Assembly: GCA_964499695.1 (NCBI GenBank)
Contig: CAZCMD010000003.1
Span: 12,842 to 76,841 of the forward strand
DNA from: an uncultured Desulfatiglans sp.
Lineage (GTDB): Bacteria; Desulfobacterota; DSM-4660; Desulfatiglandales; HGW-15
Reading direction: 5' to 3'
DNA length: 64,000 nucleotides
Numbering within the stretch: position 1 is the first letter of the stretch; each line of letters opens with the position of its first letter. Positions 187 through 18,966 of this stretch are shown in pieces. The position numbers were made by a program, and so were the translations under genes. The notes under the pieces are model-generated. The model was not told the origin of the DNA. It worked only from the letters and a program-made list of their open reading frames with translations, and did no database searches.

Positions 187-563
187 CTTTTCTCCTTCCT
201 CCTAAGATAATTGAGGATCATACTTAATTTATAAAACAAGCGGGGAATACAGAAATTTTTGTTTTTTGATTCTGTGAAAAGAAATAACCGGATCACATAA
301 TATTCCGTTACAGGAAATCAAGGTAATAGAACCGTAATAAAAGGTCAATATCCATATTTGAATATAAGAAAGATGGTTTCTGTTTTATATAATCGTATTA
401 CATGCCACGGAACCCGGAGGTGCGTATATATTATATTTATTCTGTTTTCTTGCATAATTACCGGGAACTATATTATATAATCAAATCAAAATTTCCGTTA
501 TAATAATTGCCCTTATCAGGGCAGGAGTATCTATTAAAAAAACAAATCAAGGAGGGAAGACAA

Positions 564-1250
564 ATGGATGTATTGCAGGCAATAAAAGAAAGAAAGAGCA
601 TTAGGGCATTTAAACCTGATCAGGTACCACTGGATCTCCTTAAAAAAATCATGGAGGATGCCATGCGCGCTCCTTCATGGGCAAATACCCAGCCCTGGGA
701 ATTTGCAGTGGTTACAGGTAAGAAACTCAAAGCCATACAGGATGCCTATGTAAAACGCGGCCCTGCTGCCATGCCGGGTTCATCATCTGAAGTACCGCGA
801 CCTTCTGTATTTCCGGAACCGTTTGCCTCCCGTATTAAAAAGATGCAGATAAAGGAGAGGCGTGGCCGTACTTCTGAGCTCAGTAAAGAGGAGATGGAGC
901 ATAAGATGCTTATCAATTTTACCAATTACGGGGCAACAACCTGCATCTACCTGCTGATGGATAAAAGTTATTACCAGCAGGAAAAGGGCATAAATGTCTG
1001 GGGTATGTATGATTCAGGCTCAGCAGTGCAGAATATCATGCTCCTTGCTGTAAATTATGGACTGGGAACCATCGCCCAAGCAATGGCAGTCGTATACCCT
1101 GATATCATTCGTAAGGAGGTGGGCATCCCTGAGGATAAATGCATTGCATTAGGTATTGCCATAGGATACCCGGACTGGAGTAACGAGGTAACAAAAGACT
1201 TCCGTGACAGGGAGCCTCTGGATACTATAGTTAAATTTTACGGGTTTTAG
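564..1250 (+). CDS. nitroreductase-family NAD(P)H:flavin oxidoreductase
   Basis: ORF 507..1250, with the start moved to ATG 564 behind an AGGAGGGAAG RBS. KERKSIRAF and PSWANTQPWEF motifs are typical of the nitroreductase fold. Confidence 0.8.
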   Translation: MDVLQAIKERKSIRAFKPDQVPLDLLKKIMEDAMRAPSWANTQPWEFAVVTGKKLKAIQDAYVKRGPAAMPGSSSEVPRPSVFPEPFASRIKKMQIKERRGRTSELSKEEMEHKMLINFTNYGATTCIYLLMDKSYYQQEKGINVWGMYDSGSAVQNIMLLAVNYGLGTIAQAMAVVYPDIIRKEVGIPEDKCIALGIAIGYPDWSNEVTKDFRDREPLDTIVKFYGF

Positions 1251-1274
1251 GAAAGCAGTTTCACCGCCCGTTCG

Positions 1275-1385
1275 TTTCACTCACTAGAGACGCAGAGGAC
1301 ACAGAGTTAGATGTAGTTTTTTATTTTATGACATATGCCTACAAATAAATAACTCTCTGCGTTCTCTGCGCCTCTGTGGTGAATC
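1275..1385. repeat. GCAGAG-rich imperfect inverted repeat (REP-like intergenic element)
   Basis: The left arm (agagacgcagaggacacagag) and the rc of the right arm (agaggcgcagagaacgcagag) match at about 18/21 positions. An AT-rich spacer of about 46 nt separates them. Confidence 0.4.
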
Positions 1386-1415
1386 ATTTTTAGATTAAAG
1401 TAAAGCTCAATATAT

Positions 1416-2159
1416 ATGAATCAAGTCACAAACATAGGTTACTCCATCATCATCCCTGCCTATAATGAGGAAGATTACCTCCCCCACACACTTGCTAACC
1501 TCATACAATCGATGAAGGCTGTCAGCAGATATAAAGGTGAGATTATTGTTACAGACAATAACTCCACTGACAGGACTGCGGCTATTGCAGAAGAATACGG
1601 TGCAAGAGTCATCTTTGAAGAACACCAGCAGATCTCCCGCGCACGCAATACCGGGGCAAAAGCGGCTTCAGGGAAATTTCTGATCTTTGTTGACAGTGAT
1701 ACCATAATTACTCCTCTGCTCCTCGAAAAGACCATTAACACACTTGCTTCCGGGAGATACTGCGGAGGAGGCACCATTGTCGAATTTGATGCGCCTTTGC
1801 CGTTACCCGGCATGGTTTGTCTTAAAGGCTGGCTGTTTCTTTCCAGAACATTTAAATGGGCATGCGGGGCATATGTCTTTTGTACATGTGAGGCATTTAT
1901 TGAAACAGGTGGATTTGATGAGCGTTATTATGCATCCGAAGAGATTCACTTTTCCAGGGCGTTAAGGCTCTGGGGCAGGGAAAAAAGAAAATTATTTATT
2001 ATCCTTGAAGAACCCATTATTACAAGTAGCAGAAAACTGAAATGGTTCAGCATCATGGATCATCTTCGTATGTTTCTTCGTATGTTTGCTACTCTGAAGC
2101 CTTTACAGAACCGTGATGCCTGTTACAGGATGTGGTATCAACACCCGAGAAAAAAATAA
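1416..2159 (+). CDS. family 2 glycosyltransferase
   Basis: SIIIPAYNEEDYL near the N-terminus and a FVDSDT (DxD-like) motif; GT-A fold pattern. Confidence 0.8.
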   Translation: MNQVTNIGYSIIIPAYNEEDYLPHTLANLIQSMKAVSRYKGEIIVTDNNSTDRTAAIAEEYGARVIFEEHQQISRARNTGAKAASGKFLIFVDSDTIITPLLLEKTINTLASGRYCGGGTIVEFDAPLPLPGMVCLKGWLFLSRTFKWACGAYVFCTCEAFIETGGFDERYYASEEIHFSRALRLWGREKRKLFIILEEPIITSSRKLKWFSIMDHLRMFLRMFATLKPLQNRDACYRMWYQHPRKK

Positions 2160-2197
2160 GCAGGATCATATTTAAAGATAAAAGCAAAAACAAATGG

Positions 2198-2217
2198 ATG
2201 CCCGTCTGCACGGGCAT
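2198..2217. terminator. hairpin between convergent genes (ATGCCCGT-ctgc-ACGGGCAT)
   Basis: Perfect 8-bp stem with a 4-nt loop between the GT2 stop (2159) and the propeller-gene stop (2263). No clear U-tract, so it may be a REP element instead. Confidence 0.3.
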
Positions 2218-2262
2218 GACGGTGAATGAAGATTGTTTAATGCCTTAAGACATGATTCCAGT

Positions 2263-3534
2263 TCATTTTAGTTTAAGGCAAACAACCTCTCCCTCAGAAT
2301 CCCTGGCATAGAGATAGTCACCAATTAGAACAGGCAGAGACCAGCAGAGCCCGTTCAATATTTTCTTCCGATAGGTCTCTTTGAATTTTGTATCTACCAT
2401 ATTCCCCCAGATCAATTGGCCTGTTTCAGTCAGCATTATCATTTTATCGCCAATCCCTATCAGGCTTCCAAATTCATAACTCTGATCGAACCATACGCGT
2501 TTCCCGGTAAGGGCATTAACGCAATGGAACCCTTTATCAGCCTTTACACGTCCACTGCTTAAAAAATAAATATTATTCTTATAAATAACCTGCGGATTAA
2601 AGGCAAACCACTCGTTTGGATATTTGGCATCTGTTGAAAGCCACTCCTGTGTCAGCTTATCTCCCTTAAGGGTCAACCTCGCCATACCGTGCGCGCTGTG
2701 GTTGAGATAAATACCACCTTTATAGATATAGGGAGTTATTGCATTGCAGTTGGATTTTTCCTCCCATGTTTTAGAATATGTCGCTAATGGTTTACCGGTA
2801 GCCGGGTCCAGGATATAAAAACCTTCATTTGTAAAGATTGCTACGGCCGGTCGATTAAACATACCTGAAGGTAGAGGCTTTGGTGTTGTATATCCTACAA
2901 CATTGCCATCGCTCTTCCAGAGCAGGTTCCCTGTATCCTTATTAAAGGCCATACCATTTGTGCCGATGTTGAAGATAACCGCATCACCCATAATTGTGGG
3001 TGAACCTGGGAACCCCCACCAGGGTTTTTCCGGTTTATACTGCACGGCAGAGGCCTCCCAGATCTTTTTCCCTGTTTTGGCATCAAGGCAGAATATCTGC
3101 CCGAACTTACTCAGGGTATAGACCTTTCCTTCATGGATAGTCGGAGTAGAACTCGGGCCACCCGGATGCAGACGCGGATCAAGTTTACATGGATAATCAA
3201 ATCGCCATATCTCTTTACCGGTTTTTGCATCAAGGCAATAGACATAGTCTTTTGCCGTATCCTCATCCTTTTTTGTGCCGTCATTTCCCATGGTATAAAG
3301 CAATCCATCGGCAATTGTCACCGAGCACATTCCTGTCTTGAGCTGCACCCTCCAGACTTCTTCAGCAGAGGCAGCAGTAAACTGCTTGAGCTCAGGTTGA
3401 AAATCATTATTAGGTCCAAGATAATATGGCCAGTCTGATGCAGCATTTACATTTAATGTAAACAATATTACCATGCAGATGATAATACCGCTGATCATAT
3501 CTTTATTACCATTAAGCCCGATTATCCGTCTCAT
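2263..3534 (-). CDS. secreted PQQ-like (BamB-like) beta-propeller repeat protein
   Basis: Signal-like N-terminus. Repeated motifs of the form 'YCLDAKTGKEIWRF' and 'FCLDAKTGKKIWE' are typical of PQQ-like propeller blades. Confidence 0.7.
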   Translation of the reverse strand: MRRIIGLNGNKDMISGIIICMVILFTLNVNAASDWPYYLGPNNDFQPELKQFTAASAEEVWRVQLKTGMCSVTIADGLLYTMGNDGTKKDEDTAKDYVYCLDAKTGKEIWRFDYPCKLDPRLHPGGPSSTPTIHEGKVYTLSKFGQIFCLDAKTGKKIWEASAVQYKPEKPWWGFPGSPTIMGDAVIFNIGTNGMAFNKDTGNLLWKSDGNVVGYTTPKPLPSGMFNRPAVAIFTNEGFYILDPATGKPLATYSKTWEEKSNCNAITPYIYKGGIYLNHSAHGMARLTLKGDKLTQEWLSTDAKYPNEWFAFNPQVIYKNNIYFLSSGRVKADKGFHCVNALTGKRVWFDQSYEFGSLIGIGDKMIMLTETGQLIWGNMVDTKFKETYRKKILNGLCWSLPVLIGDYLYARDSEGEVVCLKLK

Positions 3535-3602
3535 AAGCCATCTCCTGTAAATAAATTAATAGATAGGCAGTATAAACCAGCCAAAAGGTACCCCTTTCTT
3601 TT

Positions 3603-5468
3603 TTATATAACACCTTTATATGGTCTTGCAATGCTCAACTTCTTCATTCGTGATCTCAGAGTCGAATCTTTCAAACCTAAAATTCTGGCAGCGCCATTTT
3701 TCCCGCTAACCCGCCATCCTGTTGAATTCAACACCTTTATAATGTGTTCTTTTTCCATATCTTCCATTGACATATTCTTGCTTGCAGGGGCAGCTTCAGC
3801 CTGCTCTTGTTCCAGTTTCAGTGTTGATCCGCTGCTCATTATCATACCACGTTCAATAACATTTTTAAGCTCTCTCACATTCCCCGGCCAGTTATTGCTC
3901 TGCAGCTCATCCATATTTTTTTTGGGAATTATTTTTATGGATTTACCCATGCTCTGGGAAAACTCCTCAACAAAGGCCCATACGAGGAGCGGAATGTCTT
4001 CTCTTCTCTCCCGCAATGGAGGGACCATGATAGGGAAAACATTAAGACGATAGAATAAATCTCTCCTGAATACATCCTTCTTTACGAGCTCAGCCAGATT
4101 GTGATTTGTAGCGGCTATTACACGAACGTCTACAGACACGGTTTTTGCACTGCCAAGCCTTTCAAATGTACCGTCTTCAAGAACCCTTAAAAGCTTGGCC
4201 TGGAGTTCCAGCGGAAGGTCCCCGATTTCATCAAGGAATATGGTTGATTTGTCGGCAGCTTCAAACCGGCCGGCCTGTCTGGATGCGGCGCCGGTAAAGG
4301 CGCCCTTTTCACGCCCGAACAGCTCACTCTCGATAAGGCTCGCCGGTAATGCCGCACAATTTACCCTTATCATGGAACGAACATTCCTGGGGCTGAGATT
4401 ATGTATTGCCCTTGCAAGCATCTCTTTTCCCGTTCCGGTCTCTCCGGTAATAAGAACACTTGTATTCTCCTTTGCAACCCTTTCCACTGCCATGAGAACT
4501 TTTTTGATAGCCCTGCTCTCTCCAATGATTTCATTGTGCCTGTATCTGGTTTCCACCTCTTTTCTGAGGTAGATATTTTCTTCTTCAAGCTTATTCTTCA
4601 GGGCATTAATTTCAATAAATGCCTTTTTAAGTTCATTTTCAGATTTTTTTCTTTCTGTAACATCCCTTGTGAGAGAAAGGAGGAGGGATTTTTCCTCAAG
4701 ATCAACGCGCCCCAGGCGGACTTCCACGGGAAATGTGCTTCCATCCTTCCTCCTGTGGATACTTTCAAAGGTGATATGCTTTTCAGATTGCAAAGGGCCC
4801 CAGTATCTGTCTCTGTGCCCCTTTTCTGCTACATCCATATCCACATCAGATATACTCATCGTTAAAAGTTCATCTCTACTATAACCCAGCATTTCGCAGG
4901 CTGTCAGGTTGACATCCATTATCTTGCCAACGTAATCATGTATGAAAAATCCGTCACCTGCCTGTTCAACAAGCATCCTGAATCTCTTCTCACTCAACTG
5001 AAGGGCTATGGTTGCAGCTTTTTTGTCGGTAATATCCATAATGAACCCTTCATATATGGTTTTACCCGATTTAGCCTTTACAGCCCTGGCCCTGATACTG
5101 GTCCATACAGCCTCACCATCTCTTCGCTTGAGCCTGATTTCAGCGCCGTCAACGAACCCCTGGGATTTCATCCTGTGTACTATACCATCTCTCTCCTTCG
5201 GGTCCATGTAAAGCTCTGCTGCATTGGTGCATGATTTTAACAGCTCCTCCTTTGAGTTGAACCCGAGCATCTGGGCCAGCCGCCTGTTGGCAAGAAGAAA
5301 TTCACCATCTTCATTTGAACGGTAGAACCCGACCACGGCATTTTCTATCAGACTCTGGAATCCGTTCTCTATCTCAGGCATACTTTCTAATTTTATGGTG
5401 TCCTGAATTTCTTTTCCCGTGCTCTTTTGCGTTTTTACCCTGACCTTTTTACCAGGTATACGGCCCAT
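3603..5468 (-). CDS. sigma-54-dependent transcriptional activator with two PAS domains (bEBP)
   Basis: AAA+ core has Walker A GETGTGKE, the GAFTGA loop (EKGAFTGA) and ESELFG, plus a C-terminal Fis-type HTH (AARILGLKDSTLRSRMKKL). Start placed at ATG 5468 (GGAGAAGATCAA-ATG); the maximal ORF extends to 5651. Confidence 0.85.
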   Translation of the reverse strand: MGRIPGKKVRVKTQKSTGKEIQDTIKLESMPEIENGFQSLIENAVVGFYRSNEDGEFLLANRRLAQMLGFNSKEELLKSCTNAAELYMDPKERDGIVHRMKSQGFVDGAEIRLKRRDGEAVWTSIRARAVKAKSGKTIYEGFIMDITDKKAATIALQLSEKRFRMLVEQAGDGFFIHDYVGKIMDVNLTACEMLGYSRDELLTMSISDVDMDVAEKGHRDRYWGPLQSEKHITFESIHRRKDGSTFPVEVRLGRVDLEEKSLLLSLTRDVTERKKSENELKKAFIEINALKNKLEEENIYLRKEVETRYRHNEIIGESRAIKKVLMAVERVAKENTSVLITGETGTGKEMLARAIHNLSPRNVRSMIRVNCAALPASLIESELFGREKGAFTGAASRQAGRFEAADKSTIFLDEIGDLPLELQAKLLRVLEDGTFERLGSAKTVSVDVRVIAATNHNLAELVKKDVFRRDLFYRLNVFPIMVPPLRERREDIPLLVWAFVEEFSQSMGKSIKIIPKKNMDELQSNNWPGNVRELKNVIERGMIMSSGSTLKLEQEQAEAAPASKNMSMEDMEKEHIIKVLNSTGWRVSGKNGAARILGLKDSTLRSRMKKLSIARPYKGVI

Positions 5469-5492
5469 TTGATCTTCTCCATAAAAAATCTT

Positions 5493-5531
5493 ACTAGCGA
5501 AATATCGCAAATAAAACGATATTTCGCTAGT
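5493..5531. promoter_or_regulatory. 15-bp perfect inverted repeat, candidate enhancer (UAS) for the adjacent bEBP
   Basis: ACTAGCGAAATATCG-N9-CGATATTTCGCTAGT, in the divergent intergenic region about 95 bp upstream of the -24/-12-like element. Confidence 0.35.
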
Positions 5532-5625
5532 ATTTTTTTGTAATTCCATCATCGAAAATGATTTGATCAGGATATGTTGAGTGTTTTCAATGAAATACGC
5601 CATGACATAATAACCCTGCCAGAAC

Positions 5626-5639
5626 GGCATGCTTATTGT
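5626..5639 (+). promoter_or_regulatory. candidate sigma-54 (-24/-12) promoter
   Basis: cGGCATGcttaTTGTa versus the consensus TGGCACG-N4-TTGCW. Spacing is correct, but -12 is GT rather than GC. It lies 125 bp upstream of ATG 5764. Confidence 0.25.
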
Positions 5640-5763
5640 AACTACTACCAATTAAAAATTACTTTTATTGAAATATGGAAAAAATAAATTTTCCTTAGTT
5701 TTTACGGACGGGGCTTCCCATGACTTATCAATTACTGACCTTTTCAAGAGACGGGCTTAAAAT

Positions 5764-6096
5764 ATGATAGTCCTTATCCTTACCCTGAAGGTATCTCCCT
5801 CAGATCGGAAGCATGTTGTGAGCATATTTAACACAATAGCCGGTTCAACATCTGTAAAGCCGGGATGTAAAAAAGTAAAGTTCTACTCTGATGTCGATGA
5901 TGATGATGAACTTTTGTTGATAGAAGAATGGGAAACAATGTCTGAGCTTGAACGGCATATAGTATCTGCTGATTTTCGAAAGATAATGGCAATTATGGAT
6001 ATGGCAATCGAGCCGCCTGATATCTCATTCAACACAGTCACATCGATAAAGGGTTTTGAACTGGTCGAAAAAATTCGGGAGAGTGTTAACACATGA
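5764..6096 (+). CDS. ABM (antibiotic-biosynthesis-monooxygenase-like) dimeric alpha+beta barrel protein
   Basis: 110 aa. GC..V.FY....D.......EEWET...LE.H..S..F matches the ABM-domain pattern. Confidence 0.6.
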   Translation: MIVLILTLKVSPSDRKHVVSIFNTIAGSTSVKPGCKKVKFYSDVDDDDELLLIEEWETMSELERHIVSADFRKIMAIMDMAIEPPDISFNTVTSIKGFELVEKIRESVNT

Positions 6097-6147
6097 GTTT
6101 TATTTTTTCGGTGATCATAAATATCAACATACAAGGAGGTTATTAAA

Positions 6148-7107
6148 ATGAAAAAGAAAGTATTCGTTGACCTTACCCATCCATTCAGTGCGGAGATCCC
6201 GCGCTGGCCCTATTTCGTCAAACCGGTCATAGACTCCATGCATACCATGGCAAAGGGAGGTGTACTTACCCAGAGGGTCGATTGCGTACAGCACACAGGC
6301 ACTCATGCCGATGCACCGCGTCATGTAATGGAACGTGAGTTCAACGGTAAGAGAGCGCGGTATACCCACGAAATGCCTGTTGACGCCTACACCGGAGACG
6401 CAATCTGCCTTGAGATCAAAATACACCGCTGGGGCCTGATCCTGCCCGAGCATCTCGAGGATGCCTGTAAACGTGCAGGTATTAAACCGGAAGAACTCAA
6501 GGGCATGGTTGTCTGCCTGAATACTGGGATGCACCGAAAATTCGACGACTCCAAAGAATACTATCACTATTCATGCGGGACAGGCGTAGAAGCGGGCAAA
6601 TGGTTTGTAAAACACAAGGTTAAATGTGTGGCCATGGACATGCAGGCACTGGACCATCCCCTCCATACGGCCATGGGTAAAAATGGTCCACCCCAGATGA
6701 ATCTGCCAGGGGCTTCCGGAAAGCCCATCACGGTAGAATATGCCGAACAGTTCGGTGAAGAGGCCTATGCCGAATTTGAGAAAGCAGCCTACATAAAGCT
6801 TCATGGCCAGAAGGCCTATGATGCCAAATTTGGTGACCTGGAAAAAATCGGGTGTGAGGGAACCTGGGAACCATGCCACAAGCAGATGCTGGGACATGGC
6901 ATAGTTGGAGTGGAGAACCTCGGCGGAGATCTGGACAAGGTATCAGGGAAACGTTTCAGGTTCTACTGCTTCCCGATCCGCTGGTACATGGGTGACGGCG
7001 CCATGGTGCGCTGCGTAGCCGAGATCGATGAATCAGAGCTGAATGATGTTCCTGACAGAACCTACACCTACTGTGGGACAGGATACGGACCGGCCTGCGA
7101 AAGATAA
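6148..7107 (+). CDS. cyclase-family metal-dependent hydrolase (kynurenine formamidase/isatin hydrolase fold); candidate ring hydrolase
   Basis: DLTHPF and the HTGTHADAPRH (HxGTHxDxPxH) metal motif, with an AAGGAGG RBS. At 319 aa it is longer than the simple roughly 210-aa members. Confidence 0.75.
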   Translation: MKKKVFVDLTHPFSAEIPRWPYFVKPVIDSMHTMAKGGVLTQRVDCVQHTGTHADAPRHVMEREFNGKRARYTHEMPVDAYTGDAICLEIKIHRWGLILPEHLEDACKRAGIKPEELKGMVVCLNTGMHRKFDDSKEYYHYSCGTGVEAGKWFVKHKVKCVAMDMQALDHPLHTAMGKNGPPQMNLPGASGKPITVEYAEQFGEEAYAEFEKAAYIKLHGQKAYDAKFGDLEKIGCEGTWEPCHKQMLGHGIVGVENLGGDLDKVSGKRFRFYCFPIRWYMGDGAMVRCVAEIDESELNDVPDRTYTYCGTGYGPACER

Positions 7108-7190
7108 AGGGTTACAGGAAAGCCGATCTCTCCGGTCATCACAGTAGATCGGGGAGATCGGAAGGATATTATATTAATGGAGAATCGATA

Positions 7191-8216
7191 ATGATGTCCA
7201 ATAAACTGTTTTACTTATTGCGTCTTATTCTTCTATCTCTGATTTTTTCTTCATGCATGACAGGGTGTAACAATACTGATCCTGCTGAGCCGGAGAACAA
7301 CCAAAATACTGGTTTTAGTGCACAGGTGATCAAACATACAGATAAGCTGTATGATGTTTCCGTTGCCGGTTCCGGTAATGTCTGGGTAGTAGGATATTTT
7401 GGCGTGATCTTTCATTCCACTGACAACGGTCTGAACTGGATCAAAATAGATGCCGGCACAAAGGCATCTCTTTTAGGGGTCAGTTTTGTAAATGAAAAAA
7501 CGGGATGGATTGTGGGTGATCAGGGTACCATTCTCCATACGGTTGACGGAGGTCAAACCTGGGAAAGACAAAAAAGCCCGGTAGCAAATGAAAAGCTTCT
7601 GAAAGTCCAGTTCATAAATGATAAACAGGGATGGATTGTCGGCACCTTCGGACTTGTCCTGTACACCGGAGATGATGGCATGAACTGGGAGCGACTTCCA
7701 TTTACCGAGGATGTGATTCTGAATGACCTCTGTTTTATTAATCCAAATCAGGGATGGATTGCCGGTGAATTCGGAATGGTACTTTATACTGAAGACGGAG
7801 GAAAGACATGGGTAAAACAGCTTGAAGATGAAATGGGTAGGAAGATGTTCGGAATTGCATTTATAGATTCCCTTCATGGGATCGTTGTCGGAAATGAAGG
7901 AGTTATCTACACAACCAGAAACGGCGGCAAAGATTGGGAACTTAAAAGCACAGAAAATGGTGACACCCTTTTGAAGGTGGCATTTGCGGATGACACTCAT
8001 GCAACTGCTGTTGGTCTCAGGGGGTGCATGACTGCAACCGAGGACGGTGGAGATAACTGGAGATCGGTCTGCCCCCTGAACCACTTTACATGGCTTTCAG
8101 GTATAGCCTATGACAAAAGAGGAAGAGGCTTTGCTGTGGGTGATGGCGGAAATATTTTGACGAGCAATGATTCAGGTCTTGGCTGGGCGCCCTATAATCA
8201 GCCAGCACAAAAATAA
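7191..8216 (+). CDS. Ycf48-like / BNR (Asp-box) beta-propeller lipoprotein
   Basis: Lipobox-like IFSSC. Seven Asp-box repeats: STDNGLNW, TVDGGQTW, TGDDGMNW, TEDGGKTW, TRNGGKDW, TEDGGDNW, SNDSGLGW. Confidence 0.75.
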   Translation: MMSNKLFYLLRLILLSLIFSSCMTGCNNTDPAEPENNQNTGFSAQVIKHTDKLYDVSVAGSGNVWVVGYFGVIFHSTDNGLNWIKIDAGTKASLLGVSFVNEKTGWIVGDQGTILHTVDGGQTWERQKSPVANEKLLKVQFINDKQGWIVGTFGLVLYTGDDGMNWERLPFTEDVILNDLCFINPNQGWIAGEFGMVLYTEDGGKTWVKQLEDEMGRKMFGIAFIDSLHGIVVGNEGVIYTTRNGGKDWELKSTENGDTLLKVAFADDTHATAVGLRGCMTATEDGGDNWRSVCPLNHFTWLSGIAYDKRGRGFAVGDGGNILTSNDSGLGWAPYNQPAQK

Positions 8217-8258
8217 GGTATCTGTGACTTGTAATTATTATTTAGTCGGAGTAACAGA

Positions 8259-10589
8259 ATGTATAAAATACTGGTAAGTTTTCTGATACGTTTCAGGATA
8301 CTGGGTCTGATAGCCATGGCTGTCATAACCGGATTTTTCGCAACTCAGATAATCAATATGGAGATGTATACCCAGTTTCTTGATCTTTTTCCGCACAACC
8401 ATCCCTATGTCCAGGTTCATGAGAAATACAGCAAGTACTTTGGAAGTGCCTATCAGGCAAACCTGATGATTGAGGTCAGGGAGGGTACAGTTTTTAATAT
8501 CGATACCCTTGAAAAAATCAGCAGGATACAGATGGAGGTCGATCTGATACCAGGGGTAGATCACTTCGGGATTTCTTCACTTGCCAGTCCCCGTGAGACA
8601 GTTGCAAGAGAAACACCTGATGGCATATCTGTCAAGCCCATCATGAAGAATCCCCCCAGGGACATAGAAGAAATCAACGACCTCAGGAGAAAGGTATTTA
8701 CCAGCCAGGCATACGGCACACTGGTTTCAAGGGACCAGAAGGCATTGATCCTGAATGCCAACTTTCACCAGGGGCGGCTTGATTTTAATCTCCTTTTTGA
8801 TAAATTCATGGAGATCAAAAAGAAGGAAGAAGACAAAAATCACAGGATATATCTCAGCGGTCAACCGCTTCTTTACGGGTGGATATACCATTACCTTCCT
8901 GACATGGGTATCATTTTCATTTCAACAACCGTTGTAATGCTCATCATGCTTTTTATGTATATGAGGGGCTTTGGATTCTGGTGGATACCATTATTAACCG
9001 CCATTATAAGCAGTGTATGGGGGCTTGGCATCGCAGCCATGTGGGGCTTTCATTTCGATCCGCTTATTATAGTTATTCCTTTTCTGTTGAGTGCACGGGC
9101 AATCAGTCACTCAATTCAATGGTACGAAAGGTTCATCGAGGAATACAGTGTCCTTGGAGATACTAAAGAGGCCGCCATGTTGACCGGCGCAGGCATGTTT
9201 CCTCCCGGAATGATCGGGATAGTAACAGATGCCGCAGGGCTCTTCATTATAAGCCTGGCCCCTGTGCCCATACTAAAAAACCTGGCTTACCTTGGAACGA
9301 CATGGGCCCTCAGCGTTATCTTTGCTGTCCTGGTTTTTATGCCGATGTTCTTTGCCACATTAAAACATGTGAAGGTGCCGGTGTCAAAAAAGATAGAAAA
9401 AGGTATTCTGGTCCGAACCCTTTCTGTCCTTACCGGCTGGACCTTTGGAAAGGGAAGATTTGCAGTTCTCGCAATAGCAGGCATTCTACTGATTTTTGGA
9501 ATCATCTCTTCAAGGCAACTGAAATTCGGGGATGCAAATCCGGGGAGCCCGATCTTCTGGCAGGATGCGCCCTATAATACAGACACCGAACAGATTAACA
9601 GCCGTTTTCCGGGCGTTGACCAGATGTGGGTGGTATTTGAATCAAGCGGTGACTATCCTGCAATTGTTCAGCCCGAACTCATGCAGGGAATGGAATCTCT
9701 CAAACAGTATATAATTGATGATCCAAATGTTGGTCATGCCCTTTCACTGGCAGACCTTGTAAAAAGCGTGGGTATGCTGGCATATGGCAATGATCCCAAA
9801 TTTGAATCCATACCTTCGGACAGAGGCGCTATTCATGATCTCCTGTCATTCTACAAAATGGGGGCAACCGCAGGGGATCTGGACAAATGGGCAGAACCAA
9901 CACTCAGCGCTGCCAATGTAAGGATATTCCTGAAGGATCACAGGGGAGACACACTGGTAGAGGTAATAGACCGGATCAAAAAATTCATCGCTGAAAACAA
10001 GGACTCAATGGGTAATTCCGTAATGAAACCTGCCGGTGGTCTGGGCGGGATACTGGTTGCCGCCAATGAGGTTATTGCCGAGAAAAACGATCAGTTGCTT
10101 TATCTGGTCTTAGGCATAATCTTCATTCTCTGTTCAATAACGTATCGTTCATTTACAGCAGGATTCATGTTCGTGTTTTCACTTGTCCTGGCTAATTTTT
10201 TTGCCTTTTCATACATGGTTTACCGGAATCTGGGACTTAATATCAACACACTTCCCGTAGTCTCACTTGGAATAGGCCTCGGGGTTGACTATGGTCTCTA
10301 CATTATAAGCCGTATAAAGGAAACCTATATTAAGGAAAAGGACCTGTCAAAGGCAGTAATAAAGGGTGTAACGACTTCAGGCAGGGCGGTTTTCATGACT
10401 GCTACCATGATGACCATAGGAGTTGTATTCTGGTATTTCTCACCATTGCGATTTCAGGCGGAGATGGGAATATTGCTTGGAATTCTCATGATGTCCAACA
10501 TGTTTGTCGGCATTGTGATTCTTCCGGCTATCGTCAATGTAATAAAACCAAGGTTTATTCTTGGGAAGAAAGGCAGCAATATTTTGTAA
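8259..10589 (+). CDS. RND-superfamily (MMPL/HpnN-like) inner-membrane transporter
   Basis: 776 aa with two hydrophobic 6-TM bundles, each preceded by a large soluble loop. It sits with the DUF1302/DUF1329/BNR partners. Confidence 0.8.
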   Translation: MYKILVSFLIRFRILGLIAMAVITGFFATQIINMEMYTQFLDLFPHNHPYVQVHEKYSKYFGSAYQANLMIEVREGTVFNIDTLEKISRIQMEVDLIPGVDHFGISSLASPRETVARETPDGISVKPIMKNPPRDIEEINDLRRKVFTSQAYGTLVSRDQKALILNANFHQGRLDFNLLFDKFMEIKKKEEDKNHRIYLSGQPLLYGWIYHYLPDMGIIFISTTVVMLIMLFMYMRGFGFWWIPLLTAIISSVWGLGIAAMWGFHFDPLIIVIPFLLSARAISHSIQWYERFIEEYSVLGDTKEAAMLTGAGMFPPGMIGIVTDAAGLFIISLAPVPILKNLAYLGTTWALSVIFAVLVFMPMFFATLKHVKVPVSKKIEKGILVRTLSVLTGWTFGKGRFAVLAIAGILLIFGIISSRQLKFGDANPGSPIFWQDAPYNTDTEQINSRFPGVDQMWVVFESSGDYPAIVQPELMQGMESLKQYIIDDPNVGHALSLADLVKSVGMLAYGNDPKFESIPSDRGAIHDLLSFYKMGATAGDLDKWAEPTLSAANVRIFLKDHRGDTLVEVIDRIKKFIAENKDSMGNSVMKPAGGLGGILVAANEVIAEKNDQLLYLVLGIIFILCSITYRSFTAGFMFVFSLVLANFFAFSYMVYRNLGLNINTLPVVSLGIGLGVDYGLYIISRIKETYIKEKDLSKAVIKGVTTSGRAVFMTATMMTIGVVFWYFSPLRFQAEMGILLGILMMSNMFVGIVILPAIVNVIKPRFILGKKGSNIL

Positions 10590-10641
10590 ACAAAGACTGT
10601 CAATTAATAAAAAGATCAACAACTAAATCAAGGAGGGGAAG

Positions 10642-12207
10642 ATGATAAAATTTAACTGGAAAATGGGATATGTAATGCTCATTGTCTCAGGTTTTTTGGC
10701 TTTTCTATCGCCGTCCCGCAGCTCGGCTCTTGATGATGTCAACTTGAGCGATGATACTCAATTGAGTGTTTATGGCTGGTTCAGGAACAATCTTGGTGTT
10801 TTTACGGATGAACAGACTTATGTTCAAAACGGGAATGATCTGGCAACGGCAAGGACATGGCTCAGGGTTTACGGTGATCTCAAATTCTCTGACAAGTTGA
10901 GTTTTTTCACGGGCATACAATTCGTATACGAACCTGAATACGACATCGAGGAGGGATCAATAAGTGACCAGTATCATAGCGGAAAGGTATACAGTGAATA
11001 TGACAAAATCACAGATGTGCTGCGTGAAATATATGTTGACTGGCGTCCGTCTGATAAGCACAGTATAAGGCTTGGCCGTCAGATTGTTATATGGGGTGAA
11101 TCCCTTACAACGCGCGTAGGGGATGTTATTCATCCTGAAGATCAGCGCTTTACCTTTGCCTTCGCAAATATGGAAGATACCCGTATCCCTCTATGGATGA
11201 TTAAGGGACTCCATTATTTTGACGCAATAAACGGAAGCATAGAATGGCTTGTATCTCCCAATATTATCCATGAAAAGGAGTATCTTGTTAATCGTTCCGG
11301 AGAATTTCCGCAGGCTGATCAGGATGGTGTAATTCAGCCCGGACAAAGATTTGGTCTTTACCCTGAAGACAGGACAGCAGCCGGAAATCCTATCATCAGA
11401 TCATTTGCTCCTCCCTTTCCGGGCGCCCCCTTCATGGTTCCATTTGAAATCCCGCATGTTTTTGATGAATACCCGCGGAATACCGCGGATGATCTTCGGT
11501 ATGGTTTCAAGACAAGTACATTTTTAGGCGGGTACGAATTTGGAATGATGTACTATCACACCCAGAGCTATGATCCGGTTATAAAATATGGAGAATTGCA
11601 TGCCTCGCCCATGCCTGGGATTATACCCCCTACCAGAGACTATATTATGGTGCATCCGGAGATCGATATCTTCGGTTTTTACGGCAATAAGGATATACCG
11701 ATTGGTATGCTCAGGGCAGAGATGATTTATATACCGGATAAGCCCTATAACACATTTGACCGGACAGACGCTGATGCCGTTACCGAAACAGATTATGCCA
11801 AATACATGATAGCCTGGGACCTAAACGGCCTGTTTTATTTTCCATGGCACAAATCAGCCCCGTTTGATGTGAGCCTTGAGCACGTGGGGGAGTGGGTGAA
11901 TGACAATGATGATGTCCAGCATGCAATATATAATACAGAGATTGAAGAATGGACTCCATCCTTTAATGGAAGGATATCAACCAACTTTTTCTACAACAAG
12001 CTTTCTACGGAACTGATTGTATCATACGCAACAAAGGATAAAAGCGGCCTTGTTATGCCGGTAGTTAAATATACTCCAAGCTGGCAAAACAAGGCGCTCT
12101 CATTTGAACTGCGGTATATAAATATATTTGGTGAGAGCAATTACAGCGGTCTTGGTATCTTACAGCAGAAGGACATGTTTGTATTAACATCACAGTTCAA
12201 TTTTTAA
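10642..12207 (+). CDS. DUF1302-family outer-membrane protein
   Basis: Signal peptide, then IRLGRQIVIWGESL...DVIHPEDQR, the characteristic DUF1302 core. Aromatic C-terminal residue (QFNF). Confidence 0.7.
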   Translation: MIKFNWKMGYVMLIVSGFLAFLSPSRSSALDDVNLSDDTQLSVYGWFRNNLGVFTDEQTYVQNGNDLATARTWLRVYGDLKFSDKLSFFTGIQFVYEPEYDIEEGSISDQYHSGKVYSEYDKITDVLREIYVDWRPSDKHSIRLGRQIVIWGESLTTRVGDVIHPEDQRFTFAFANMEDTRIPLWMIKGLHYFDAINGSIEWLVSPNIIHEKEYLVNRSGEFPQADQDGVIQPGQRFGLYPEDRTAAGNPIIRSFAPPFPGAPFMVPFEIPHVFDEYPRNTADDLRYGFKTSTFLGGYEFGMMYYHTQSYDPVIKYGELHASPMPGIIPPTRDYIMVHPEIDIFGFYGNKDIPIGMLRAEMIYIPDKPYNTFDRTDADAVTETDYAKYMIAWDLNGLFYFPWHKSAPFDVSLEHVGEWVNDNDDVQHAIYNTEIEEWTPSFNGRISTNFFYNKLSTELIVSYATKDKSGLVMPVVKYTPSWQNKALSFELRYINIFGESNYSGLGILQQKDMFVLTSQFNF

Positions 12208-12240
12208 TGACCTGTTCTATTTGCTAAAGGGAGGCAAAAA

Positions 12241-13482
12241 ATGAAAATGAAAATTAGAAAACAAGTAATATTAGCCGGTCTTTCAGGTTTACTGCTTGCA
12301 TTGTGCCTGAGCTTTATTGTTCCTGCCCAGGAAAGCATGCCCCAACCCGGTACAACAATAGATAAGAATAATTATTCACAATATAAAGATTTTTTTCCGG
12401 ATTTTTTTCATGAGGCATTTACAACAGGTTGGGAGATGGTAGAGCCCCTGAAGATAACTATTCAGGCCACATCATCAAACCCTGTGCCCAAACCCTTCCT
12501 GGAGGCCACTGCCAAAAATAAGGGTAAGTATTCCATTGATTCCTCCGGATATATAGCAGGAGGCGATTATAAGGATATTGTGGGATTTCCATTTCCTGAT
12601 TTGAACCCTGATGACAAGGATTTTGCAGTCAAATTTATGTGGAATTTCGATTACCGGTATAAACTGGATGATATGTATGCCATGTTTTTGAATTATGAAA
12701 AGAGGAAGGGTGAACCAACGGTCCTGTCAACTGTAGAATCATGGCAGGTATCATTCCAGAATAGAATGTTCGAGGATCCAAAACCCCTGTACCAGACAGC
12801 CAATGGCCTGAGGTCTGTGAACTTCCTTAGAAATGTCTCCCCGCCTGTTCAGAAAAATTTCATGACACTGCTCATAAGGTATATAGACCAGAAGGAGCCA
12901 GACGCCACTTTCCTTTACCTGCCGAGCATGAGACGGACATTAAGGGGAGAGGCCGGAGAAAGATCAACCCCGATCCAGTCATCCACTCAGGCACCTGATG
13001 ATTTCGAAGGAGGGTTCAATGGCCGTATCCCGGAATTCAAATACAACTATCTGGGCGAGAAAAAAATAATCGTTCTGGCAGATGCCAAACTTGGTTTCAA
13101 GGATGTGAAGGATTCCCATTCCAATATGATCCCTGTAGAAAACAAAGGGTGGGAAGTAAAGGATGTCTATATTTTTGAAATAACCCCGAAAGATCCCAAG
13201 TATCCCCATGGGAAGAAGGTTATTTATATAGACAGGGAAAACTACTGGCCCTACTACTGCGCAGGCTGGGATCGTGCAGGCGCCCTGTGGAAGGTATGGC
13301 AGACAGCTATAACAAAACAGGCTAATGCCAAAGGCGAAGCCTTCCCCTATTTCAAGGGTATGCTGGGGGTGGATGTTCAGCTCGGTTACGCTGTCAACAT
13401 GTTTACGGACTGGCAGGCCAATGGAAATAATTTAAAAGAGTCAGATGTCTCTGTTTCTTCCATGCGCAGAAGGGCAAGGTAG
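12241..13482 (+). CDS. DUF1329-family (LolA-like) periplasmic protein
   Basis: Signal peptide; size and position immediately after DUF1302 as in the conserved pair. The family call is from pattern memory only. Confidence 0.65.
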   Translation: MKMKIRKQVILAGLSGLLLALCLSFIVPAQESMPQPGTTIDKNNYSQYKDFFPDFFHEAFTTGWEMVEPLKITIQATSSNPVPKPFLEATAKNKGKYSIDSSGYIAGGDYKDIVGFPFPDLNPDDKDFAVKFMWNFDYRYKLDDMYAMFLNYEKRKGEPTVLSTVESWQVSFQNRMFEDPKPLYQTANGLRSVNFLRNVSPPVQKNFMTLLIRYIDQKEPDATFLYLPSMRRTLRGEAGERSTPIQSSTQAPDDFEGGFNGRIPEFKYNYLGEKKIIVLADAKLGFKDVKDSHSNMIPVENKGWEVKDVYIFEITPKDPKYPHGKKVIYIDRENYWPYYCAGWDRAGALWKVWQTAITKQANAKGEAFPYFKGMLGVDVQLGYAVNMFTDWQANGNNLKESDVSVSSMRRRAR

Positions 13483-13604
13483 CTTTTTATAATTGTAATT
13501 TTTTTCGCTTCACCCTCCCCGTTCCCCCGATCTCATGATGGATGGGGCGGTGAGGGTGTTAACAAGCATACAGAAATTATGCTGTAGTTTGAGATGGATA
13601 TATA

Positions 13605-14633
13605 ATGACCAGAAGAGAAAATGCCCTTATTGCCTATCATCATGGGGTGCCGGCATTCATACCTGCATTATTTACGGATATCTCTATCTTACAGGCCAGG
13701 CCGCAAATGGAACGTTATTGCGGTCTTGATTCGGGTCTTGATGAGTTCGGTATTGATTGGACCTATGTACCGCAGGCAAGGGCACCAATGCCCACCGCAG
13801 GAAAAATAATGTTTGAGGATATTAATGACTGGAAAAACCATGTAAAGTTTCCGGACCTGGAGGCTGTTGACTGGGAAAAACAGGCGAATATCGATGTCCA
13901 TACGGATTTTATGGCATTGGTCGCTGGCGCCGGTATTGTTCCAAGGGCCGACGGGAAAAGTGCATATGATGAAGAGAAACTGGTTTTATGCATGGTCATC
14001 AATGGACCTTTTGAACGTTTACACGCCATGATGGGATTTGAAAATGCGCTGATGGCCCTGGCCTCTGATCCGGATGAATGTTATGCCTATTTCAAAGCGA
14101 TTGCTGACTGGAAGATAGAGTATTTTAAGAAAATTGTTAGATATTATAAAGTAGATGTTATTAATGCACATGATGATTATGGAGCTGCAGATCGTATGTT
14201 CATGGCACCGGATACCTGGAGAAAACTTATCAAACCTCATTTAAAGAGAATGGTTGATGCGTGCCATGAGGCAGGAGTGATGTATCAACACCACAGTTGC
14301 GGTCACATTGAACCGATTTTTAAAGATTTTGTTGAGATTGGCGTTGATGCAATTGATCCCCTGCAGGCAGGAAGTAATAAAAACCTTGGTGAACTGAAGT
14401 TAATATTTGGAGATAAGATTACATTTTGCGGTGGTTTTGACAATCAGAAGGTTTTGGAAAAACCCGGGGTAACTTCAGAGGAAATCAAGACAGAATACCG
14501 CAGGGCAATTGATACCCTGGCGCCGGGGGGAAGTTATGTAGCATTTCCAATTACCATAGGGTTTGATTTTGTAGGGCCGTTTCTGGAAGAACATTTTCAA
14601 TATGGCATGGGATTTTATGCAAATCAACAGTAG
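13605..14633 (+). CDS. uroporphyrinogen-decarboxylase (URO-D) family protein, MtaA/CmuA-like methyltransferase type
   Basis: 342 aa with an N-terminal 'RENALIAYHHG' and a C-terminal 'HSCGHIEPIF..F.E.GVDAIDPLQ' pattern typical of URO-D-fold cobalamin-dependent methyltransferases. Confidence 0.65.
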   Translation: MTRRENALIAYHHGVPAFIPALFTDISILQARPQMERYCGLDSGLDEFGIDWTYVPQARAPMPTAGKIMFEDINDWKNHVKFPDLEAVDWEKQANIDVHTDFMALVAGAGIVPRADGKSAYDEEKLVLCMVINGPFERLHAMMGFENALMALASDPDECYAYFKAIADWKIEYFKKIVRYYKVDVINAHDDYGAADRMFMAPDTWRKLIKPHLKRMVDACHEAGVMYQHHSCGHIEPIFKDFVEIGVDAIDPLQAGSNKNLGELKLIFGDKITFCGGFDNQKVLEKPGVTSEEIKTEYRRAIDTLAPGGSYVAFPITIGFDFVGPFLEEHFQYGMGFYANQQ

Positions 14634-14720
14634 AAAATTACAGAACGAATCAACAATACCGGCAAACCTTGCAGGGATGCTGGCCGTGATCAATTATTAA
14701 GAATAAATGGAGATATTATT

Positions 14721-15644: not shown

Positions 15645-15646
15645 AG

Positions 15647-15768: not shown

Positions 15769-15820
15769 ATGATTGTACAGTATAAGAGGCACAGGGCAAC
15801 TACTTAATAGAAAGGAGAAA

Positions 15821-16609: not shown

Positions 16610-16629
16610 CCTCATTTTAGAAAAAATAG

Positions 16630-16709: not shown

Positions 16710-16776
16710 TTAAATAACAATGTGATTTTGACCAGGATAACAATTTTTATAAACATGACATAAAAGGTGCTGCAGG

Positions 16777-18962: not shown

Positions 18963-18966
18963 CAGT

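Follow-up and report, generated by a model that had tools for sequence, protein, structure and literature searches.

A dihydrophloroglucinol cyclohydrolase ortholog within a flavonoid and phloroglucinol gene array of an uncultured Desulfatiglans relative

When plant polyphenols are degraded without oxygen, the ring of dihydrophloroglucinol (DPG) is opened by a manganese enzyme, dihydrophloroglucinol cyclohydrolase (DPGC), and the gene at positions 6148-7107 of the window is, by sequence, clearly an ortholog of it. The window is the whole stretch of DNA that was analysed, 64,000 nucleotides from an uncultured Desulfatiglans sp., and the gene is the second of an array of 15 genes on the same strand (5764-23740). 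The account proposed here joins the DPGC function, the array, control by sigma-54 and the deletion of a second operon, and is considered highly probable as a whole. DPGC itself is already known, as are its extra length and its occurrence in relatives of sulfate reducers. New here are the palindrome and the sigma-54-type promoter upstream of the ABM and DPGC genes, as well as the strong conservation of DPGC across phyla.

The DPGC gene lies on the plus strand, starts with ATG and encodes a protein of 319 aa. Its Shine-Dalgarno sequence AAGGAGG (6134-6140, plus strand) is located 7 nt upstream of the start and is also kept before a truncated second copy, described below. A database search for the exact 319 aa protein returned no identical record. 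The protein matches the Pfam Cyclase family (PF04199, E 3.3e-31), and the HxGTHxDxPxH metal motif pointed out in the first-pass annotation is present as HTGTHADAPRH at residues 49-59. The metal ligands are H49, H53, D55, H244 and E256, and H59, W20 and Y22 are further conserved. H49, H53, D55, H59 and H244 are invariant in a multiple alignment of DPGCs, isatin hydrolase and paralogs, and these five as well as E256, the glutamate of VENLGG, are invariant in 27 clade members. That DPGC belongs to the cyclase family, as stated in the first-pass annotation, is confirmed by the literature (PMC10470551).

Kynurenine formamidases of solved structure and further short cyclases have lengths of 186-213 aa, so that the window protein is about 100-110 aa longer, in agreement with the earlier estimate of about 100 residues. 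The N- and C-terminal parts of these short cyclases align to residues 1-69 and 241-292, and most of the excess is therefore found between DHPLH (169-173) and VENLGG (255-260), where it had been proposed to lie, and smaller extra stretches occur in the C-terminal tail and around residues 62-75. In the alignment with the DPGCs of Clostridium scatologenes (CsDPGC) and F. plautii (FpDPGC), the insert corresponds position by position. The description of the gene as a long form is correct with respect to the length itself, but there is nothing particular to this gene in it: DPGCs have this architecture as a rule, with 312-337 aa, a range into which 319 aa fits. In an AF2 model (pTM 0.80), the insert is predicted as four helices with a pLDDT of about 90, and the N-terminal active-site loops are of low confidence (pLDDT <50 for residues 14-74). 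All 32 significant structural matches of the model are PF04199 structures.

CsDPGC (UniProt A0A0E3JZE4) has been shown biochemically to be a Mn2+-dependent DPG ring opener (Zhou et al., mBio 2023, PMC10470551), with a kcat of about 1 s-1 and a KM of about 0.2 mM. The window protein shares about 84% full-length identity with CsDPGC, 71% with FpDPGC and 67% with ErDPGC from E. ramulus, values that are approximate and probably underestimates because the reference sequences were obtained by OCR of Fig. S4A in PMC10470551. An exhaustive search showed that the DPGC clade is sharply bounded, with at least 65-70% identity inside the clade and the next full-length relatives at 45% or less. These identities support the initial proposal that the gene encodes the ring-opening step of the pathway, and the window protein would be expected to hydrolyze DPG by analogy with its characterised ortholog. 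Two residues that contact the substrate in isatin hydrolase, Ile32 and Leu34, are replaced by Trp and Tyr in CsDPGC (PMC10470551). Both residues, Trp20 and Tyr22, are present in the window protein and are invariant in the 27 clade members; since W-P-Y also occurs in some distant short cyclases, they are necessary for a DPGC but do not discriminate it. Conservation of DPGC across phyla is very strong, and the window protein is 85-87% identical to proteins from Bacillota. Recent horizontal transfer was rejected as the sole cause of this identity, as synonymous positions are saturated.

All genes of the array are on the plus strand. A gene for an ABM-domain protein of 110 aa comes first (5764-6096) and is conserved directly upstream of DPGC in loci L001, L002, L006, L007 and L009. 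DPGC is followed by four genes that form an AmeABCD-type HAE3 RND set (7191-13482), encoding a Ycf48-like BNR protein (7191-8216), an RND/MMPL protein (8259-10589), a DUF1302 protein (10642-12207) and a DUF1329 protein (12241-13482), and then by a URO-D/MtaA-CmuA-like methyltransferase-family gene (13605-14633). In locus L018, a 5' remnant of the latter gene is found between DPGC and the lyase gene. The next gene encodes a BKACE-family enzyme (14721-15644; Pfam BKACE E 3e-99), presumably the triacetate (3,5-dioxohexanoate) acetoacetate-lyase (TAL). Its nearest NCBIfam model is the 3,5-dioxohexanoate model NF053538, with 391 bits against a cut-off of 430, and its best PDB match is 3lot, not the Kce type. 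It belongs to a different subgroup than the TAL of C. scatologenes and shares only 30-38% identity with the BKACE genes adjoining DPGC in Bacillota and Actinomycetota.

The presumed phloroglucinol reductase (PGR) is an SDR protein (15773-16609, with an alternative start at 15821), which is 50-58% identical to the SDR adjoining DPGC in Bacillota loci. Its best PDB matches are 5g4k and 5g4l at 260 bits, followed by 186 bits for the next best. We take 5g4k to be the phloroglucinol reductase of Conradt et al. 2016; a literature search for PDB 5G4K as phloroglucinol reductase found nothing. A 3-hydroxyacyl-CoA-dehydrogenase (HCDH)-family protein (16777-17718), 58% identical to the characterised CsTfD, is the presumed (S)-3-hydroxy-5-oxohexanoate dehydrogenase (TfD). 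The last part of the array (17718-23740) contains an MFS transporter, a PhlG-like hydrolase, a chalcone isomerase, an FMN reductase-like gene and an OYE/enoate reductase, assigned to the steps from flavonoids to phloroglucinol. The array is located in a larger polyphenol locus, together with a tannase, a GH3 glycosidase and esterases.

In the proposed pathway, the SDR phloroglucinol reductase would yield DPG, the substrate of DPGC. DPGC, as a Mn2+-dependent hydrolase of the cyclase fold, would then perform a retro-Claisen cleavage of a ring C-C bond, resulting in (S)-3-hydroxy-5-oxohexanoate. This product would be oxidized to triacetate by TfD, and triacetate would be split with acetyl-CoA by the BKACE enzyme. 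Enzymes that cleave flavonoids and an RND-type transporter of four components are encoded in the array as well.

Between the stop of DPGC (7107) and the start of the BKACE gene (14721) lie 7.6 kb, and the gene had been described as encoded that far from the rest of the pathway. The distance is correct, but the description is misleading: DPGC is part of the same co-directional array, and the gap consists of the four-gene RND set, which explains most of it, and the methyltransferase-like gene. Locus L002, whose DPGC is 98% identical, has neither of these, and DPGC is located there directly upstream of TAL-PGR-TfD, abutting the BKACE gene. No other cyclase-family gene was detected in the window by tblastn, and none is present in the 14.7-23.7 kb block, of which this had been named the only missing pathway family. 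Of 80 related loci from three phyla, around 70 have DPGC adjoining SDR and/or HCDH homologs and usually BKACE as well, and no pathway-gene remnants were found at the solitary DPGC loci. Several spacers in the array measure 120-190 bp. A scan for sigma-70 promoters and terminators over 5.5-25 kb gave hits at chance level and is uninformative on operon structure. No RNA family was detected when the window was scanned with Rfam.

The methyltransferase-like gene also bears on the substrate. An enzyme of the DPGC clade could act on a related cyclic 1,3-diketone, such as a methylated or acylated DPG derived from methoxylated flavonoids or acylphloroglucinols. The presence of this gene beside the pathway genes, the two PhlG-like hydrolases and the conserved upstream ABM gene, which has no assigned role, would fit such a substrate. 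However, the 84% full-length identity to CsDPGC and the invariant pocket and ligands leave little room for an altered specificity, and the 98% identical protein of L002 works without the methyltransferase-like gene, making a substituted substrate very unlikely.

In the automatic JGI annotation, many nearly identical homologs are named kynurenine formamidase, and a kynurenine (aryl)formamidase that hydrolyzes N-formylkynurenine in tryptophan catabolism shares the fold and the metal motif with the window protein, whose best structural match is KynB of B. anthracis (4co9). Yet the arylformamidase equivalog TIGR03035 (NCBIfam) scores 35.4 bits, far below its cut-off of 223, and matches residues 6-110 only. 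Solved KynB proteins match only marginally at the sequence level (E about 2e-3), are 13-19% identical to the window protein when the structures are aligned, and are about 110 aa shorter. No gene of tryptophan or kynurenine metabolism was found among the ORFs annotated in the window, a set that takes in part of the last 10 kb and part of the ORFs <140 aa. Together with the high identity to an enzyme shown to be a DPGC, this renders a formamidase extremely improbable. Practically no weight can be given either to a function unrelated to the downstream phloroglucinol genes, as an amidase like isatin hydrolase or as a polyketide cyclase (DpsY-like side): the best structural matches include isatin hydrolases and the family name comes from polyketide cyclases (PMC10470551), but isatin hydrolase 5NNB is 22% identical in the multiple alignment and gives only short local BLAST matches (30% over 50 residues), Ile32/Leu34 are replaced as in CsDPGC, and the synteny with SDR, HCDH and BKACE is kept across phyla. 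Identities, alignment and the TIGR03035 score all place the protein with the DPGCs rather than with the formamidases or isatin hydrolases.

Upstream of the array, a sigma-54-type -24/-12 element, GGCATGCTTATTGTA, is located on the plus strand at 5626-5640, 124 nt before the start codon of the ABM gene. Its -12 part reads TGT, where the canonical form is TGC. A search with a strict sigma-54 pattern (TGGYAY-N5-TTGCW, at most one mismatch) gave no match near the gene, and the element was seen only through comparative alignment. In an alignment of six loci, the block GGCA..CTTA.TGTA is invariant within diverged surroundings, and it is unique in the window. A perfect palindrome, AGCGAAATATCG-N9-CGATATTTCGCT (5497-5527; inverted repeat I3), is likewise invariant in the six loci and unique in the window; lying some 100-130 bp before the -24 part, it is a candidate enhancer (UAS) for the sigma-54 activator encoded next to it. 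Divergent from the ABM and DPGC genes, a sigma-54-dependent activator with a PAS-PAS-AAA+-HTH_8 architecture is encoded on the minus strand (3603-5468), and its true start is MGRIPGKK and not the upstream TTG at 5651. Transcription most likely starts at the sigma-54-type promoter at 5626-5640, and comparative conservation suggests that it is probably driven by the PAS-PAS activator, bound to the palindrome at 5497-5527.

More tentatively, the activator, the invariant palindrome, the -24/-12 element and the ABM protein may together constitute an undescribed control module of this Desulfobacterota lineage that responds to phloroglucinol or flavonoids and is always located directly upstream of DPGC. 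The position of the ABM gene as the first of the array suggests that its protein could even be an extra, cofactor-free component of the pathway, such as a tautomerase or isomerase that acts on phloroglucinol, DPG or a flavonoid intermediate, and this reading as a whole is possible but rather doubtful. To our knowledge, the published four-enzyme pathway contains no tautomerase- or isomerase-type step of this kind.

The first-pass annotation also reported a truncated copy of the 5' end of the gene at 24589-24657. Such a remnant exists on the minus strand at 24600-24657 (58 nt), containing the first 19 codons plus 1 nt of a second DPGC gene, with its own conserved RBS and its promoter region kept. 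The minus strand from 24657 to 24598 encodes MGKKVFVDLTHPFSAEIPRF, of which 18/20 residues match DPGC (tblastn within the window, E 1.9e-6), and a repeat finder independently recovered the inverted repeat 6145-6205/24600-24660 (87%). DNA homology to DPGC, however, stops at 24600, and the end reported at 24589 is where the residual frame meets its stop codon.

This remnant is the scar of a deletion of about 4.4 kb, which removed a second, compact, TetR-linked DPGC-TAL-PGR-TfD operon that is intact in a related MAG. The TetR regulator of the former resident operon is still present on the minus strand (23779-24417), collinear with L018 and L010. On the other side, a PhlG/phloretin-hydrolase-like gene (24811-25509, plus strand) is divergent from the remnant, as it is in L018, L010 and L034. 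Collinearity with L018 extends on both sides, and the junction is base-precise. It contains about 96 bp of filler (24504-24599) with the palindrome CATGGGGACCCATG, for which no match was found in the window, the 80 loci or metagenome contigs. The earlier suggestion that the island once carried at least two such genes is right in that a second DPGC existed, but that gene came from the separate resident operon and not from the same island. A simple inversion between two oppositely oriented DPGC copies was rejected, as it would not leave TetR beside the remnant. An assembly artefact at the junction is a formal possibility, as the exact junction sequence was not found in any independent metagenome contig and the scar is thus not independently replicated. 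The 20 kb segment that is missing from L018 shows no direct repeats or other mobile-element signatures at its borders (3552 and 23774).

With the gene read as a DPGC, an uncultured relative of sulfate reducers appears to encode a complete route from flavonoids via phloroglucinol to acetyl-CoA units. This is of use for predicting anaerobic polyphenol mineralisation in sediments and does not add new enzymology. Homologs of about 312-337 aa that are automatically annotated as kynurenine formamidase and are at least 65% identical to CsDPGC should be read as DPGC. Furthermore, DPGC may be parted from its partner genes by a transporter insertion or be entirely solitary, and operons of the DPGC-type pathway are gained, duplicated and lost over short evolutionary timescales.

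Among known systems, CsDPGC is like the window gene in length (312 versus 319 aa), metal motif, Trp20/Tyr22 and insert, and it has the same partners, an SDR reductase, an HCDH-family dehydrogenase and a BKACE lyase, with flavonoid-cleaving genes nearby. The window gene differs in its host, an uncultured Desulfatiglans-like member of the Desulfobacterota, in its BKACE partner of the 3lot-like instead of the Kce-like subgroup, in its position behind an ABM gene and an apparent sigma-54 promoter, and in its separation from its partners by the RND set and the methyltransferase-like gene. DPGC clusters are listed for the Gram-negative sulfate reducers Desulfopila aestuarii and Desulforhopalus singaporensis and for Archaeoglobus fulgidus (Data set S4, PMC10470551), so that the taxonomic setting is already anticipated in the literature. 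These clusters are listed only, and as far as the accessible part of that source goes, it does not mention the sigma-54/ABM module, the insertion of the transporter or the scar of the lost operon. KynB (PDB 4co9, 4cz1) and isatin hydrolase (PDB 5nna/5nnb, 4m8d) share the cyclase fold and the metal site of HxGTHxDxPxH plus a C-terminal His, and their catalytic logic is analogous, with a metal-activated water attacking a carbonyl. They are 13-22% identical to the window protein, about 60-110 residues shorter and without the helical insert at about 190-235, and they cleave C-N amide bonds, whereas DPGC cleaves a C-C bond. The transporter set has its counterpart in the AmeABCD HAE3-type RND system of Castellaniella defragrans (PMC6394551; also bioRxiv 10.1101/072470), in which the same four proteins (DUF1302 outer-membrane protein, DUF1329 LolA-like protein, Ycf48-like BNR protein and HAE3 RND pump) are encoded within a catabolic island. 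The order in the window is different, namely BNR-RND-DUF1302-DUF1329, and the set accompanies polyphenol genes instead of monoterpene genes.

The gene at 6148..7107 on the plus strand was found exactly where the first-pass annotation had placed it, and its 319 aa ORF starts with ATG, 7 nt 3' of a strong ribosome-binding site (AAGGAGG). Residues 7-170 of the protein match the Cyclase family (Pfam PF04199, E 3.3e-31), and the motif HTGTHADAPRH noted at first reading spans residues 49-59. The placing of dihydrophloroglucinol cyclohydrolase (DPGC) in this family at first reading agrees with the description of the cyclase-family protein A0A0E3JZE4 of Clostridium scatologenes (CsDPGC) as a Mn2+-dependent DPGC (Zhou et al., mBio 2023, PMC10470551). 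CsDPGC opens the ring through a retro-Claisen reaction, resulting in (S)-3-hydroxy-5-oxohexanoate; among characterised proteins, isatin hydrolase comes closest to it, with 25% identity, and its Trp20 and Tyr22 stand in for residues of the isatin-hydrolase pocket (PMC10470551). The window protein is ~84% identical to CsDPGC over its full length, ~71% to the homolog of F. plautii and ~67% to that of E. ramulus, all approximate values from the OCR text of Fig. S4A of PMC10470551. Identity to isatin hydrolase 5NNB is 22% in a multiple alignment, and BLAST gives short local matches only. An assignment as arylformamidase was rejected, as the NCBIfam equivalog gives 35 bits at a cut-off of 223. The comparison proposed at first reading, with DPGCs, formamidase and isatin hydrolase, therefore groups the protein with the DPGCs. 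Both W20 and Y22 are found in it, and H49, H53, D55, H59 and H244 are invariant among DPGCs, paralogs and isatin hydrolase. In an exhaustive HMMER search covering 1.84 billion representatives, the DPGC clade is sharply bounded, its full-length members sharing at least 65-70% identity against at most 45% for the next full-length relatives; in 27 members, W20, Y22, H49, H53, D55, H59, H244 and E256 are all invariant. A paralogous clade of long cyclase-family proteins (P0140, P0142, P0164) is 37-45% identical to DPGC and is sometimes encoded directly 3' of a true DPGC gene (2002-2736 in related locus L021, 11154-11888 in L033).

Short cyclase-family members of solved structure have 186-213 aa, so the DPGC protein is ~100-110 residues longer, close to the excess of about 100 first estimated. 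The N- and C-terminal parts of these short proteins align with residues 1-69 and 241-292. Most of these extra residues fall between DHPLH and VENLGG, and smaller additions are found at residues ~62-75 and in the C-terminal tail. DPGCs of 312 aa in C. scatologenes and 336-337 aa in E. ramulus and F. plautii are known (PMC10470551), and the "long form" is therefore simply the normal appearance of a DPGC. The long paralogs keep the first part of the insert and lack DPGC residues ~212-238. In an AlphaFold model (pTM 0.80), the insert at ~190-235 is predicted as four helices (pLDDT ~90), and the N-terminal active-site loops are poorly modelled. A Foldseek search of the PDB with this model matched only cyclase-family structures at 13-19% identity, including KynB 4co9 (TM 0.75 on target) and isatin hydrolases; none of the 32 significant matches is described as a DPGC. 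The gene also stands out in composition, with a GC of 0.52 and a GC3 of 0.575, against a GC3 of 0.39-0.49 in all 19 neighbours (2263-27495). Other AT-rich Desulfobacterota loci show this excess relative to the flanks too; it could stem from codon bias due to high expression or from a transfer that is not yet fully ameliorated.

DPGC is the second gene of an array of 15 genes (5764-23740), all on the plus strand, with spacers of -20 to 189 bp. The short-chain dehydrogenase (SDR; 15773-16609, +) has its best PDB match in 5g4k/5g4l (260 bits, 186 for the next), which we take to be the phloroglucinol reductase of Conradt et al. 2016. The HCDH-family protein (16777-17718, +) is 58% identical to the characterised CsTfD. 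For the BKACE protein (14721-15644, +), the nearest NCBIfam model is NF053538, "3,5-dioxohexanoate:acetyl-CoA acetone transferase" (3,5-dioxohexanoate being triacetate), with 391 bits, below the cut-off of 430. In the PDB it matches the uncharacterised 3lot best (356 bits), the Kce-type 2y7d giving only 166 bits, and it is only 30-38% identical to the DPGC-adjoining BKACE genes of Bacillota and Actinomycetota. The triacetate-lyase step is thus probably served here by a subgroup other than that of CsTAL, possibly through non-orthologous replacement. A flavonoid-to-phloroglucinol module follows 3' of the HCDH gene and consists of genes for an MFS transporter, a PhlG-like hydrolase, a bacterial chalcone isomerase, an FMN-reductase-like protein and an OYE/enoate reductase. 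The 167 nt spacer between the SDR and HCDH genes contains an imperfect inverted repeat with 43-nt arms (16627-16712). As RNA the repeat folds into a long hairpin (MFE of the whole spacer -55.7 kcal/mol, z = -4.0, equalled by 0/200 shuffles). This hairpin may stabilise the transcript between the cistrons, mark a processing site or represent a REP-like element.

The first-pass annotation had DPGC encoded 7.6 kb away from the rest of the pathway. The 14.7-23.7 kb block indeed holds no cyclase-family gene and the gap exists, but it consists of five genes inserted within the same-strand array. A scan of one genome per species gave 385 relatives, the nearest of which (98% identity) are from Desulfatiglans and other Desulfobacterota MAGs, so the window stems from an organism of this kind. 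By synteny mapping and blastn, locus L001 matches the window in the order PQQ-, activator-, ABM+, DPGC+, BNR, RND, DUF1302, DUF1329, URO-D-like, BKACE and SDR, and L006 and L009 have the transporter genes in the same place. In L002, with an equally similar DPGC, this gene is followed directly by BKACE-SDR-HCDH-MFS-PhlG-CHI: window 3649-7106 corresponds to L002 7506-10959, and window 14703 onward to L002 11008 onward. In most of the best 80 of the 385 loci (Desulfobacterota, Actinomycetota and Bacillota), DPGC adjoins SDR and/or HCDH homologs, usually with BKACE. Four of the gap genes, encoding a DUF1302 outer-membrane protein, a DUF1329 LolA-like protein, a Ycf48-like BNR protein and an RND pump, are an AmeABCD-type four-component HAE3 RND system. 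The fifth (13605-14633, +) is an MtaA/CmuA/URO-D-like methyltransferase-family gene, which possibly has a part in the O-demethylation of aromatics with methoxy groups. The same gene directly follows DPGC in L008 (3293-4318), and its first 328 nt are retained as a remnant in L018 (11069-11396).

The array opens with a gene for a 110 aa ABM-fold protein (5764-6096, +) without an NCBIfam assignment, which lies directly 5' of DPGC in all sigma-54-linked loci (L001, L002, L006, L007, L009); Desulfosarcina variabilis (L023) has a weak 36% match. Upstream, the divergent gene (3603-5468, -) encodes a PAS-PAS-AAA+-HTH sigma-54 activator. An alignment of the region 5' of the ABM gene in the window and five related loci puts the activator's true start at MGRIPGKK (~5468) instead of a TTG further 5'. 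Two invariant blocks stand out of diverging sequence in this alignment, each occurring once in the window. One is a perfect palindrome, AGCGAAATATCG-N9-CGATATTTCGCT with 9 intervening bases (5497-5527), and the other, ~100 bp further 3', is (T/C)GGCA(T/C)-N5-(T/A)TGTA (5626-5640), a putative sigma-54-type -24/-12 element with TGT at -12 in place of TGC. Enhancer-dependent promoters classically have their enhancer 100-130 bp 5' of the -24 element; the spacing found here fits this geometry and makes the palindrome a candidate enhancer. Judging from these sequence features, an effector-sensing activator likely turns on ABM-DPGC and possibly the whole array. A consensus promoter/terminator scan was uninformative, and an Rfam search of the leader gave no match.

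A tblastn search of the whole window with the DPGC protein matched only the gene itself and one fragment, the truncated 5' end reported previously. This minus-strand remnant (24657->24598) encodes MGKKVFVDLTHPFSAEIPRF, has its own RBS and was recovered independently by a repeat finder (I1, 87%). Loci L018, L010, L034, L004 and L017 carry a compact operon, PhlG-like(-) | DPGC-BKACE-SDR-HCDH-(MFS)-TetR. By blastn, reversed L018 is collinear with the window in three blocks: 441-3551 (L018 18386-15236; genes 5' and the PQQ-repeat gene), 23775-24503 (15192-14460; TetR and its promoter region) and 24600-27481 (10058-7179; the first 58 nt of DPGC, the PhlG-like gene and an FAD flavoprotein). There are two differences. 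The window lacks ~4.4 kb of L018 (10059-14459: DPGC from codon 20, then BKACE, SDR and HCDH), replaced by 96 bp of unrelated filler (24504-24599) without a match in the window, the 80 loci or metagenome contigs. The window also has a 20.2 kb segment (3552-23774, activator through enoate reductase), without repeats marking its borders, where L018 has a 43 bp TetR-PQQ spacer. The remnant at 24600-24657 is therefore part of a lost resident TetR-linked operon, so a second DPGC did exist, but not as a member of the island to which it had been ascribed. An assembly error at 24.5 kb is possible, since the deletion junction was absent from every other contig looked at; against this, the junction is base-precise and the window is collinear with L018 on both sides. 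The operon was presumably lost once the larger sigma-54-linked array had made it redundant.

Further rearrangements are visible in the window. The PhlG-like 3' end and an FrdA-like FAD flavoprotein gene occur twice (24600-27481 and 36375-38362; ~85% and 86% identical to L018), and downstream synteny with L018 resumes only past the second copy, at 38487-49594. The ~9 kb between the copies (27.5-36.4 kb), with an FAD oxidoreductase, a TonB-dependent receptor, a second TetR, MATE and MFS_2, was thus apparently inserted in association with the duplication. Three copies of a 130-160 nt repeat, which contains an internal inverted repeat (19620-19644 / 19675-19699), lie in the window (19588-19718, 53745-53877, 56851-57016). 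The repeat is also present in L001 (2428-2563), where the window has an empty site, and it resembles a small mobile element of the MITE/REP kind. The region 39267-55670 encodes a GntR regulator, a 912 aa tannase/feruloyl esterase, a GH3 glycosidase with PA14, an FGGY sugar kinase, several alpha/beta hydrolases, a carboxylesterase, a SnoaL-like protein and an aldose 1-epimerase. The entire 64 kb reads as a plant-polyphenol utilisation locus of a Desulfobacterota genome.

DPGC shows very strong conservation across phyla. Identities to Bacillota are 85-87% for DPGC versus 35-60% for HCDH, 42-58% for SDR and 33-38% for BKACE, and to Actinomycetota 86-96% versus 53-65%, 42-53% (best SDR hit) and 28-37%. 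Where the window and Bacillota proteins share a residue, the third codon positions agree in only 39-49% of cases, near saturation, and DPGC GC3 follows the host, ranging between 0.18 (Tissierella) and 0.98 (Thermoleophilia). Long-term purifying selection across the full length, insert included, therefore accounts for the conservation. In high-GC Actinomycetes MAGs (L019-L038, L053, L059), DPGC is 92-96% identical to that of the window, whereas the adjacent HCDH (56-65%), SDR (42-45%) and BKACE (32-37%) are distant; third-position identity is 54-62%, no lower than among Desulfobacterota. This suggests that, on top of very strong purifying selection, DPGC alone was exchanged between phyla. On four independent contigs (L081-L084), P0001, a 96% identical relative, is a solitary DPGC surrounded by Lnt, PAP2, ADP-ribosylglycohydrolase and EamA genes, with long spacers and homology to the window that does not reach more than ~13 nt past the ORF; a search of these loci found neither partner genes within 10 kb nor pathway remnants. 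Solitary DPGC genes are also seen in L003, L005, L024, L015, L022, L031 and L056, and one Actinomycetes MAG holds both a clustered (L028) and a solitary (L031) copy.

The enzyme, its family, its length and the pathway in sulfate reducers and Archaeoglobus are already known, the pathway having been published for the Gram-negative sulfate reducers Desulfopila and Desulforhopalus and for Archaeoglobus (PMC10470551). What is added is local, namely the anatomy of the array, the apparent sigma-54 module with the ABM gene, the transporter insertion, the operon-loss scar and the degree of conservation, none of which would much surprise a specialist. AmeABCD-type systems are likewise known in catabolic islands for monoterpenes and aromatics (PMC6394551; bioRxiv 10.1101/072470), and the gap block has the same four components as the AmeABCD HAE3 RND systems (PMC6394551).
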